Part shown: one piece after another, positions 2,020 to 4,846 of the stretch | Layout of the letters: each line of letters opens with the position of its first letter | Numbering within the stretch: position 1 is the first letter of the stretch | IMG/VR virus record: IMGVR_UViG_2713896779_000029 | Source of the DNA: a virus | Taxonomy: Duplodnaviria; Heunggongvirae; Uroviricota; Caudoviricetes | Reading direction: 5' to 3' (one strand) | Length of the DNA: 4,846 nt | Notes under the pieces: model-generated | Told to the model about the DNA's origin: nothing | Seen by the model: the letters and a program-made list of their open reading frames with translations, nothing else | Database searches by the model: none | Position numbers and translations under genes: made by a program

Positions 2020-2476
2020 ATGCCTATAGATTTGGTTTTACCTTACCCGCCAACGGTGAACACCTACTGGCGTCGTCGTGGCAGTACATATTTTATCTCG
2101 GAGGAGGGAAAGCGTTATCGCCGGGCAGTGGCGCTTATTGTTCGCCAGCAGCGGCTGAAATTAAGCCTGTCCGGAAGGCTGGCGATAAANNNNNNNNNNN
2201 NNNNNNNNNNNNNNNNNNNNNNNNNNNNNNNNNNNNNNNAAATTAAGCCTGTCCGGAAGGCTGGCGATAAAGGTGATTGCAGAGCCACCGGATAAGCGCC
2301 GTCGCGACCTGGACAATATTCTGAAAGCACCGCTGGATGCGCTGACGCATGCGGGAGTGCTCATTGATGACGAGCAGTTTGATGAAATCAATATTGTACG
2401 TGGTCAGCCAGTATCTGGTGGACGACTGGGTGTGAAGATTTACCAAATAACGCATGAAGGACAGGCCCAAAAATGA
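2020..2476 (+). CDS. rusA: RusA-family Holliday junction resolvase (crossover junction endodeoxyribonuclease), interrupted by an N gap
   Basis: ATG 2020 preceded by aagagg RBS. N-terminal LPYPPTVNTYWRR and C-terminal PDKRRRDLDNILKAPLDALTHAGVLIDDEQ...SGGRLGVKI match RusA hallmarks (LPWPPS, RRRDLDN with catalytic Asp, DALT, DD, GGRL). Removing the N run plus one copy of the flanking 32-bp repeat joins the two halves in frame to give about 124 aa. Confidence 0.85.
2158..2271. repeat. Perfect 32-bp direct repeat (2158-2189 and 2240-2271) flanking a 50-N gap; probable unmerged contig-end overlap
   Basis: aaattaagcctgtccggaaggctggcgataaa occurs identically on both sides of N run 2190-2239. Confidence 0.8.
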
Positions 2477-3294
2477 AACTGGAAGATTTACCGAAGTACT
2501 ATTCACCAAAATCCCCCGGCCTGACAGATGCCTCTGCCTCGACGTCAAAAGATGCGCTGAGTATCACTGATGTGATGGCAGCGCAGGGCATGACACAGAA
2601 TCGGGCTGAGATGGGGTTTTCTGCGTTCCTTGGGAAAATGGGCATTAGTATGAATGACAGAGAGCGGGCAACAGAATTGCTGACAGAATATGCACTCAGT
2701 CGGTGTGATTGCGTGGCGGCGTTAAGAAAACTCCCGGCAGAAATAAAACCGGCAGTGATGCGCATTATGGCTTCGTATGCGTTTGAAGATTATGCCCGTA
2801 GCGCGGCGAGCAAAAAACAGTGCCCCTGCTGTCACGGAAAAAAATTTATTGAAAGCGAGGTTTTTACAAACAAGATCCAGTATCCGGATGGTAAGCCGCC
2901 AGTATGGGCAAAGTGCACAAAAGGCGTGTATCCGTCTTACTGGGAGGAATGGAAAAAAGTCAGGGAGGTGGTAAAAGTTGCCTGTCCGGAGTGTGGCGGA
3001 AAGGGGGAGGTTTCCACAGCCTGTAAAGATTGTCGTGGGCGCGGTGTTGCCATTCATCGTGAAGAGTCGGAAAAACAGGGTGTGCCGGTTTTCAGAAACT
3101 GTCAGCGTTGTGGTGGGCGTGGCTATGAAAGATTACCTTCAACGGAGGCATTTAATGCCATATGTAATGTAACCGATGCCATATCTCTTGATACATGGAA
3201 AAAAACAGTTAAACGTTTTTACGATACGCTGGTGGTGCAGTTTGATATTGAAGAAGCATGGGCAGAACAACAACTGAAAAAGGTGACCAGATAG
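2473..3294 (+). CDS. Q: Late-gene antiterminator Q (lambda Q family) with expanded zinc-binding region
   Basis: ATG 2473 overlaps the rusA stop (ATGA at 2473-2476); stop TAG 3292-3294. Blocks shared with lambda Q as I recall it: SPKSP, TDVMAA-GM, F/YxDYxRSAA, CxDCxGxG, CxRCxGxGYxRxP, and the C-terminal WxxTVKxxYDxLVVQ...VTR. It is 273 aa against 207 aa for lambda Q. Confidence 0.9.
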   Translation: MKLEDLPKYYSPKSPGLTDASASTSKDALSITDVMAAQGMTQNRAEMGFSAFLGKMGISMNDRERATELLTEYALSRCDCVAALRKLPAEIKPAVMRIMASYAFEDYARSAASKKQCPCCHGKKFIESEVFTNKIQYPDGKPPVWAKCTKGVYPSYWEEWKKVREVVKVACPECGGKGEVSTACKDCRGRGVAIHREESEKQGVPVFRNCQRCGGRGYERLPSTEAFNAICNVTDAISLDTWKKTVKRFYDTLVVQFDIEEAWAEQQLKKVTR

Positions 3295-3299
3295 CTTTG

Positions 3300-3342
3300 T
3301 TGATTTTTCCCGAATCTGTGGTAAATTTCCCCTAACGATGGG
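3300..3342 (+). promoter_or_regulatory. pR'-like late promoter with sigma70-dependent pause element (Q-utilisation region)
   Basis: -35 TTGATT (3300-3305), 16-bp spacer with TG at 3319-3320, -10 TAAATT (3322-3327), then 6 nt, then AACGATGGG (3334-3342). Lambda pR', from memory, has TAAATT-N6-AACGATGGG with identical spacing. Located 6 bp after the Q stop codon. Confidence 0.7.
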
Positions 3343-3376
3343 CTTTTTATGCCTGACGTTAGAAGATTTTTTACAC

Positions 3377-3398
3377 CCCGCCGCCAGGCGGGTTTTTT
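3377..3398 (+). terminator. Rho-independent terminator (tR'-like), about 45-65 nt downstream of the pR' start
   Basis: GC stem cccgcc (3377-3382) and ggcggg (3387-3392), loop gcca, followed by TTTTTT (3393-3398). Confidence 0.8.
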
Positions 3399-3503
3399 AT
3401 GACTGAAATCGCGTCAGTACAGTAAACGCGCTGGTGGCGGTGAATACCGGTCTTTCAGCTTGCTGGCTTTTTCGACAAGAGTTATTGGTGTGTCACGTTA
3501 ACC

Positions 3504-3553
3504 NNNNNNNNNNNNNNNNNNNNNNNNNNNNNNNNNNNNNNNNNNNNNNNNNN
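3504..3553. other. Assembly gap / masked segment (50 N)
   Basis: Run of exactly 50 N inside the tR'-to-methyltransferase intergenic region. Confidence 1.
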
Positions 3554-3693
3554 ATTTGTGGTAAATGGGCGGCTGGTGGGTGTTAGGGGCACTCACCAGC
3601 CATCTGCTCATGCGTCTGGATCACAAGCAAACCTCAGGCCCACTGCTTTGCGCAAAAGCAGAATGAGCCTATCAGAGACAGGCTTAATGATCC

Positions 3694-4792: not shown

Positions 4793-4846
4793 GGCCCTTT
4801 AGCTCAGTGGTGAGAGCGAGCGACTCATAATCGCCAGGTCGCTGGT
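4793..4846 (+). tRNA. tRNA with CAU anticodon, most like tRNA-Ile2 (ileX/ileZ type); 3' part truncated by the window edge
   Basis: ggcccttTAGCTCAGTGGTGAGAGCgagcgaCTCATAAtcgccaggtcgctggt: acceptor stem, D-arm (AGCTCAGTGG-GAGAGC) and anticodon loop CTCATAA with CAT at 4826-4828. Near-identical over the available part to my recollection of E. coli ileX. Elongator tRNA-Met cannot be fully excluded without the complete gene. Confidence 0.8.

Follow-up and report, generated by a model that had tools for sequence, protein, structure and literature searches.

A late-control cassette of E. coli prophages with a candidate Q-binding element different from that of lambda

The Q protein of phage lambda binds as a monomer to a 13-bp asymmetric site, with its helix-turn-helix at positions 1–4 and its zinc-ribbon arm at positions 11–13, and the tip of the arm touches sigma region 4, relocated to a −35-like site (PMC9388147). 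The −35-like element that serves sigma region 4 after its relocation directly precedes the pause element (10.1101/2022.03.25.485794), the scrunched complex that pauses at lambda pR′ follows the consensus T+14 N Y+16 G+17 (PMC9191641), and the pR′ leader ends at +193 (PMC4914094). The locus described here, which lies in a stretch of 4,846 nucleotides that we call the window, shares with lambda a Q protein of Pfam family PF03589, a site (here putative) between the −35 and the −10, an intrinsic terminator and a 5′ stem to which the pause element contributes bases. It differs from lambda in its spacer, which is of 16 nt rather than 17 and of unrelated sequence, with an extended −10 TG that lambda does not have; in its Q, which has four CXXCXGXG motifs compared to two and a predicted recognition helix reading ISLDTWKKTVK in place of LTQPTWSRTVK; and in its leader, which is about 65 nt long compared to 193 nt. 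Of the two, only lambda has TTGACT.

The closest characterised relative is phi80. Its gp17 is a long-arm Q of 269 aa, 41% identical to the Q of the window, its leader is of about 74 nt, and it too is without TTGACT. The phi80 record (JX871397) annotates a gp17(Q) site, TCGCGGA, at nucleotides 2–8 of the spacer, in the upstream half after the −35. This is the position of TTCCCGA (3307–3313) in the window, including the co-varying base discussed below, and the two spacers read TCGCGGAA...ACTGG and TTCCCGAA..CTGTGG, respectively. Unlike the window, phi80 has the helix IKKTAAYEQLQ, another site sequence, a 17-nt spacer, the pause element AACGCT and the −10 TAGATT. The gp17 protein was reportedly the subject of a study by Guo and Roberts in 2004, as cited in PMC9388147. 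A second phage with a short leader is P22 (gene 23, P late and t late), where, according to the record, late transcription starts at 37887 and t late occupies 37917–37945, giving a leader of about 58 nt. P22 also has TAAATT and a pause block, AACGATGG, that is the same as ours over its first 8 nt, but its Q is of the lambda type (207 aa), as is its binding site, and it has TTGACT.

In phages of the 933W type, which have a 144-aa Q, the late leader is 258 nt long and is processed to the 74-nt RNA StxS (PMC7547250). The resemblance to the locus studied here lies in a constitutive late-promoter transcript that ends at tR′ in lysogens, which we predict for the window as well, and in the presence of stx2 downstream in the phage Stx2_EH1910; the processed 258-nt transcript and the 144-aa Q are the differences. 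The StxS paper describes two Q clades, of 144 and 207 aa, and the 273-aa type considered below is absent from it (PMC7547250). Nor is the window's type of promoter defined as a class in the pR′ survey of Zhang et al. 2018 (PMC6266700).

The late promoter and its setting

The order of genes in the window (YgiW-like, DUF968 or ydfU-like, rusA, a 273-aa Q, the pR′ cassette, a gap of 50 N, a DNA methylase and the start of a tRNA) is that of the nin/late-regulation segment of a lambdoid prophage. Judged by its sequence elements, the cassette at 3300–3398 is a late promoter with a pause signal and a terminator, of a type very common in E. coli prophages. Its features, together with the Q gene, are as follows:

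2473..3294, + strand: gene for the Q antiterminator, 273 aa (Pfam PF03589, E = 3e-51)
3300..3305, + strand: −35 of pR′, TTGATT, 5 nt past the Q stop codon (4/6 compared to TTGACA)
3306..3321, + strand: spacer TTTCCCGAATCTGTGG, 16 nt, the proposed Q-binding element (direct reading)
3319..3327, + strand: extended −10, with TG at 3319–3320, G at 3321 and TAAATT at 3322–3327 (hexamer the same as in lambda)
3328..3333, + strand: the six bases TCCCCT between −10 and start (direct reading)
3334..3342, + strand: sigma-dependent pause element, AACGAT followed by GGG, with the predicted start at its first base, A3334 (sequence and spacing identical to lambda)
3348..3351, + strand: TATG at +15 to +18, which fits T-N-Y-G (direct reading)
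3334..3360, + strand: predicted 5′-terminal stem-loop, leader nucleotides 1–27 (−8.5 kcal/mol, z = −2.6)
3361..3376, + strand: A/U-rich linker AGAAGATTTTTTACAC, unpaired in the minimum-free-energy and centroid folds
3377..3398, + strand: intrinsic terminator tR′ from a terminator scan (six G-C pairs, loop GCCA, U6)

A previous sequence-only reading of this stretch had held that the −10 and the pause element match lambda pR′ with the same spacing, and direct comparison with lambda (NC_001416), where pR′ reads TTGACT-17 nt-TAAATT-TGACTC-AACGATGGG, bears this out: the hexamer TAAATT, the 6-nt length of the gap and the 9-nt AACGATGGG are all identical. It had also called the spacer unrelated to that of lambda, and we agree, as 7 of 16 positions are the same when the two are anchored on the −10, with no real similarity except the GG at −14/−13. 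The extended −10 TG (3319–3320), where lambda has GGG, had been overlooked. The window has a single match to the composite TAAATT-N6-AAYGATGGG, and 200 shuffles gave none. A sigma-70-type promoter directly 3′ of Q (TTGATT, 16 nt, TGnTAAATT) is kept in at least 69 IMG/VR loci and in 2083 genomes, and the −35 TTGATT is unchanged across 28 distinct sequences of the E. coli type. A generic promoter scan made no call at 3300–3335, but this is no evidence against a promoter, because the site scores 8/12 and the threshold of the tool is 9. We infer promoter activity, the start site and termination at 3300–3398 from these elements and by analogy with the known systems.

The pause element had been described as identical to that of lambda, which is true of AACGATGGG and its spacing, but not of the bases around it. 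At the place of lambda's TTGACT (the last T of the −10 plus five of the bases at 3328–3333) the window has TTCCCC, matching at 3 of 6 positions, and its TNYG lies one base further downstream than that of lambda. In both lambda and P22 the pause element is preceded by TTGAC(T/C), and phi80 is without such a −35-like element. From TATG, and by analogy with lambda, the 3′ end of the pause RNA would be expected at +17 (3350). The comparison suggests that long-arm Q proteins may engage sigma region 4 in a different way.

Two other readings of bases in or near the cassette were considered and set aside. A 22-codon ORF from the ATG at 3338 (3338–3406, running through the terminator) has no ribosome-binding site, and both HK225 and lambda have a stop two codons past the same ATG, so that it is probably non-coding. 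A second copy of TGTGGTAAAT (first copy 3317–3326) at 3557–3566 was tried as a second promoter, but its hexamer is TAAATG, without the final T, and recurrence of a 10-mer is expected by chance in 4.8 kb. In related genomes this copy comes after the terminator-like sequence of a small ORF.

The assembly behind the window is a draft with gaps, and some of the cassette copies discussed below lie in defective prophages. There are three runs of exactly 50 N (901–950, 2190–2239 and 3504–3553), of which the middle one has about 30 bases duplicated on either side (2160–2189 and 2240–2269) and splits rusA. The runs of N and the flanking duplication look like non-biological products of draft-assembly scaffolding; rusA is intact in complete genomes. 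At the place of the third gap, related genomes carry a 65-aa ORF that is winged-helix-like. At 4793–4846 lies the 5′ portion of a tRNA gene (anticodon CAT), cut off by the window edge, and in relatives it is annotated as tRNA-Ile or tRNA-Met and is followed by two tRNA-Arg, a group that we take to be the ileZ-argN-argO set of Stx-type phages. This tRNA was the sole match in an Rfam scan of the window, with none for the leader RNA, and ARAGORN called no tRNA in the window because the gene ends at the window boundary.

The spacer and the Q proteins that accompany it

Within the spacer, the candidate core is TTCCCGAA (3307–3314), with C3311 (−23) as its specificity base. Scanning IMG/VR for TAAATT-N6-AACGATGGG gave at least 120 loci, and the matches listed fall, scattered chance matches aside, into only two promoter classes. 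The class of the window (at least 69 loci) has the spacer TTTCC(C/G)GAATCTGTGG, a Q stop codon 5 nt before the −35 and a terminator that ends at +63 to +66. A 273-aa Q lies upstream in 60 of the 69 loci listed, the remaining ones being without a full-length upstream ORF, in some cases owing to a contig edge. The other class, that of lambda and P22 (at least 42 loci), has a lambda-type spacer and a 207-aa Q. Among the matches listed, the −35 and the spacer of the window class are nearly invariant, and the hexamer after the −10 takes at least 10 forms. A full-text literature search for the spacer sequence gave chance matches only.

The element is also found well beyond E. coli. When one genome per species was scanned, which gave 80 homologues of Q in about 50 genera of Enterobacterales, the core TTTCC(C/G)GAA(T/A)CTG(T/G)G was seen to persist where Q is only 50–63% identical to that of the window. 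It is present in about 30 Enterobacterales prophages, with carriers in Klebsiella, Enterobacter, Kluyvera, Silvania, Pantoea and Erwinia, as well as in the phages HK225, PHB10 and phiEt88. In the relatives that keep the core, the −35 has become TTTACT and the −10 TAATTT or TTATAC, with unrelated sequence in the flanks. The conserved 3′ part of the spacer, CTGTGG, overlaps the extended −10 TG, and its conservation may reflect promoter strength rather than contact with Q.

The predicted recognition helix of the window Q is ISLDTWKKTVK, residues 237–247, an assignment that comes from alignment to lambda Q and the published domain description rather than from a residue-level contact map. Across the family each predicted type of helix, at the position of window residues 237–247, is paired with a spacer type of its own:

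LTQPTWSRTVK (lambda): spacer TTGAATAAA.TTGGG
PETTWRRSYK: spacer AAGTGGCGAT.TTTG
TETTWRRN(Y/F)K: spacer GTGGCGG
TDYQWY.GYA (Qin/mEp460 type): spacer TTCAAAAA
H(I/V)RTWTRNWK: spacer TTTTGTCCGAA

Within the window's own type the pairing extends to a single base. Q proteins with D240 and K243 go with C at −23 (3311) in 72 loci, representing 48 distinct proteins, and those with A240 and E243 go with G at −23 in 18 loci, with no exceptions across the two sets (72 + 18 loci). The switch is seen between sister pairs that are 78–90% identical, within at least four lineages that are themselves 51–62% identical to each other. The codons of the helix lie only about 60–90 nt upstream of the spacer, and this linkage adds to every association between Q and spacer. 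Even so, a coupling that recurs without exception in separate backgrounds indicates a functional contact between the Q helix and spacer base −23, despite the linkage, and it is probably residue 243 that reads this base pair. Taking the bottom strand, the pairings would be Lys with G and Glu with C, both of which agree with established amino acid–base preferences, and such a reading would be chemically sensible. By this comparative evidence the spacer (3306–3321) is a candidate Q-binding element of a specificity different from that of lambda, and probably slightly different from that of its C-to-G sister class. A third variant of the spacer, TTTCCCTAA, has T in place of G at −22 and is found beside an unchanged SLDTWKKSVK helix in Enterobacter prophages (L150, L151, L152 and L153), and position −22 may be less tightly read than −23.

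The Q protein itself is 32% identical to lambda Q. Against the lambda Q structure (PDB 7UBM, E = 5e-41) residues 1–113 and 182–273 align, leaving an insert of about 68 aa. Its four CXXCXGXG motifs are at C117, C171, C184 and C210, the insert supplying two extra. Four such CXXC motifs are found in 9 of 10 aligned Q proteins of the family, lambda Q being the exception. A Q from Pectobacterium polonicum (L199; NZ_CP139173, 1001–1950) is of particular use in separating arm from helix: this 271-aa protein has four CXXC motifs together with lambda's helix, and it lies beside a lambda-type 17-nt spacer, AGTTGAATAACATTGGG, and TTGACC. Its ends are nearly those of lambda Q, with an added insert of about 66 aa that carries two more CXXC motifs. 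With such ends, the insert and a lambda-type site together in one locus, lambda Q looks as though it arose from the long-arm form by deletion. In the sequences compared, site class follows the recognition helix of Q and not the enlarged zinc arm. The sequence-only reading had proposed a divergent and expanded Q with a different DNA specificity. What survives of this is a different spacer element matched to a different Q, which linkage, conservation and the co-variation at −23 all favour; the expansion, however, is usual in the family, and the length of the arm does not set the class of site.

The leader RNA and its terminator

The 65-nt leader folds as a whole with −21.9 kcal/mol (z = −3.5). 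In the 5′ stem-loop an outer stem pairs AACG (3334–3337) with CGTT (3357–3360) and an inner one pairs GGGC (3340–3343) with GCCT (3351–3354). The terminator has the stem CCCGCC/GGCGGG and loop GCCA at 3377–3392, followed by T6 at 3393–3398. Taking +1 as 3334, by analogy with lambda, the end of the U-tract is at +65, in agreement with the earlier placing of the terminator about 60 nt past the start. The accompanying view that so short an interval between pR′ and tR′ is out of the ordinary does not hold, as it is of about 58 nt in P22 and about 74 nt in phi80 and is similar in HK225, PHB10 and mEp460, and it is lambda and the phages of the 933W type that are long.

RNAalifold on 59 leaders found no structure, owing to the fact that the MAFFT alignment was ungapped and left the 3′ arms out of register. 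We therefore give more attention to an alignment-free swap test of the outer stem, in which each of 75 distinct leaders was searched for the matching tetramer 10–25 nt downstream:

Leaders starting AACG: CGTT in 45/47 (alternative TGTT in 11%)
Leaders starting AACA: TGTT in 14/14 (alternative CGTT in 21%)
Leaders starting AATC: GATT in 3/3 (CGTT in none)
Leaders starting GATG: CATC in 1/1 (CGTT in none)

As a class average, the complement of a leader's own arm is present in 59% of leaders, compared to 13% for the arms of other classes. The predicted outer 5′ stem, to which the pause element gives its first four bases, thus co-varies across the family. The GTT of the 3′ arm is invariant in an alignment of 11 phages that includes lambda, P22 and phi80, and a literature search found no mention of a compensated 5′-terminal stem pairing. 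With its first base at +1, such a stem may be expected to shield the late transcript or the short RNA against decay that depends on the 5′ end. The leader as a whole is highly conserved among E. coli copies; outside E. coli only its pause element, 5′ stem and terminator escape divergence.

Mechanism, alternatives and distribution

We think it very probable, from the sequence comparisons and by analogy with lambda, that the cassette is a late-control unit working by lambda-like Q antitermination, with a site in the spacer that is read by its own 273-aa Q. Sigma-70 RNA polymerase would start at about A3334 from TTGATT, the 16-nt spacer and TGG TAAATT; sigma region 2 would then bind again at the −10-like AACGAT (+1 to +6), and the complex would scrunch and pause at about +17. 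The helix-turn-helix of the 273-aa Q would bind the spacer at the core TTCCCGAA (3307–3314), and loading of Q onto the paused polymerase would make it resistant to termination, allowing read-through of 3377–3398 and, beyond it, transcription of methylase, tRNAs and late genes, with stx2 among the late genes in some phages. When Q is absent, transcription would stop at about +65 to give a short RNA made up of the 5′ stem-loop, the U-rich linker and the terminator hairpin. The textbook mechanism stands in all this: the system is a known one and its short leader is unremarkable. What the comparison adds is a candidate site, a predicted residue-to-base contact and the absence of lambda's −35-like element.

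Other accounts of the same data are considerably less probable. One is that the ~65-nt terminated RNA is the main product, a trans-acting small RNA of lysogens like StxS, with antitermination only a part of the function. The predicted fold, with its 5′ stem-loop, A/U-rich linker and U6 terminator, and the strong conservation of the leader in E. coli copies are what one would expect of such an RNA, for which StxS and lambda 6S RNA are precedents (PMC7547250). However, the leader matches no Rfam family, and its divergence outside E. coli, which spares just pause element, 5′ stem and terminator, fits functions in cis. An Hfq-CRAC orphan list also has no peak at the copy of the cassette in Sakai prophage Sp6, though this carries little weight since the list is reportedly of peaks more than 100 nt from features. 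On balance we regard a small RNA as the main product as unlikely. We place somewhat lower still the view that the spacer is kept merely as promoter architecture and by hitch-hiking with the Q gene, the Q proteins of the family being interchangeable here. Q and spacer are 5–130 nt apart and hence co-inherited, and CTGTGG contains the extended −10 TG; yet the −35, the −10 and the bases after it drift while the TTTCCxGAA core stays, other types of helix have spacers of their own, and the phi80 record puts a Q site in this place. Hitch-hiking would also have to account for a switch at −23 that follows two residues of the helix, in four lineages or more, with 0 exceptions.

Least credible, to the point that we would be surprised to see it upheld, is that the cassette is a decayed remnant in a defective prophage, where the hairpin merely ends the Q transcript and there is no functional late promoter. 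The gaps in the draft assembly of the window, and the IS elements and pseudogenes in the prophage around the copy in strain RM8352, are in keeping with decay. Against this, the cassette is present in the sequenced phages Evi, mEp460_ev081 and vB_EcoS-640R1 as well as in an Stx2a-converting phage, it is near-invariant over 2083 genomes, and Q is intact at 273 aa.

Within the preferred reading of lambda-like antitermination by a matched Q, a more specific proposal can be made, though we put it forward tentatively and consider it rather doubtful as a whole: that the long-arm Q proteins follow a code, in which Lys or Glu at residue 243 reads C:G or G:C at −23 and other helices read other spacers, and that they load without a −35-like dock. 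The two-zinc arm might perhaps replace the contact that lambda Q makes with sigma region 4. If this were true, lambda would not be typical of the Q family for which it serves as the model, and natural orthogonal pairs of Q and QBE, among them the one controlling stx2 in some STEC, could be predicted from sequence. To our knowledge, all that is known mechanistically of the Q-lambda family comes from lambda Q, its short-armed exception. The comparative data yield predictions that can be tested, namely the bases of the site, the residue that reads −23 and the position of the pause. The pairs of Q and site are probably orthogonal and could find use in typing the regulation of Stx phages and as antitermination parts for synthetic circuits.

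The cassette is among the commonest late-gene switches of E. coli prophages. The 171 bases around the element are present, near-invariant, in 2083 of 5426 complete E. coli genomes (38%), and are 100% identical in strains of O121:H19; the copy in the O121 strain RM8352 lies in a non-Stx lambdoid prophage with IS elements and pseudogenes. Sakai prophage Sp6 carries the cassette, with the predicted leader at about 1554201–1554266 on the + strand. The arrangement is shared by phages Evi and mEp460_ev081, and phage vB_EcoS-640R1 has the cassette as well. The Q of Sakai Sp10 is of another type. Several small RNAs were tried as the leader RNA and rejected: Esr41 comes from SpLE1 and is unrelated, EcOnc11 is near the lysis genes in Sakai, EcOnc33 lies inside the esterase gene ECs_1527 on the opposite strand, and EcOnc04 is just upstream of another esterase gene, ECs_2189.

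In phage Stx2_EH1910 (LC567834, 3274–7352) a cassette 97% identical to that of the window lies upstream of a methylase, three tRNAs and stx2AB. From this arrangement, toxin transcription would be under the cassette in at least one Stx2a phage, and the 273-aa type of Q would be one regulator of Stx2a production. In Stx2 phages with a 126-aa Q of the Q21 family (PF06530), the DNA shared with the window starts only at 3377/3378, the first base of the terminator stem. Among sequences of the window class, the DNA differs directly past the U-tract. Sharing that begins at the terminator stem and divergence that begins past the U-tract make the terminator the joint between the Q/pR′ module and the module downstream.
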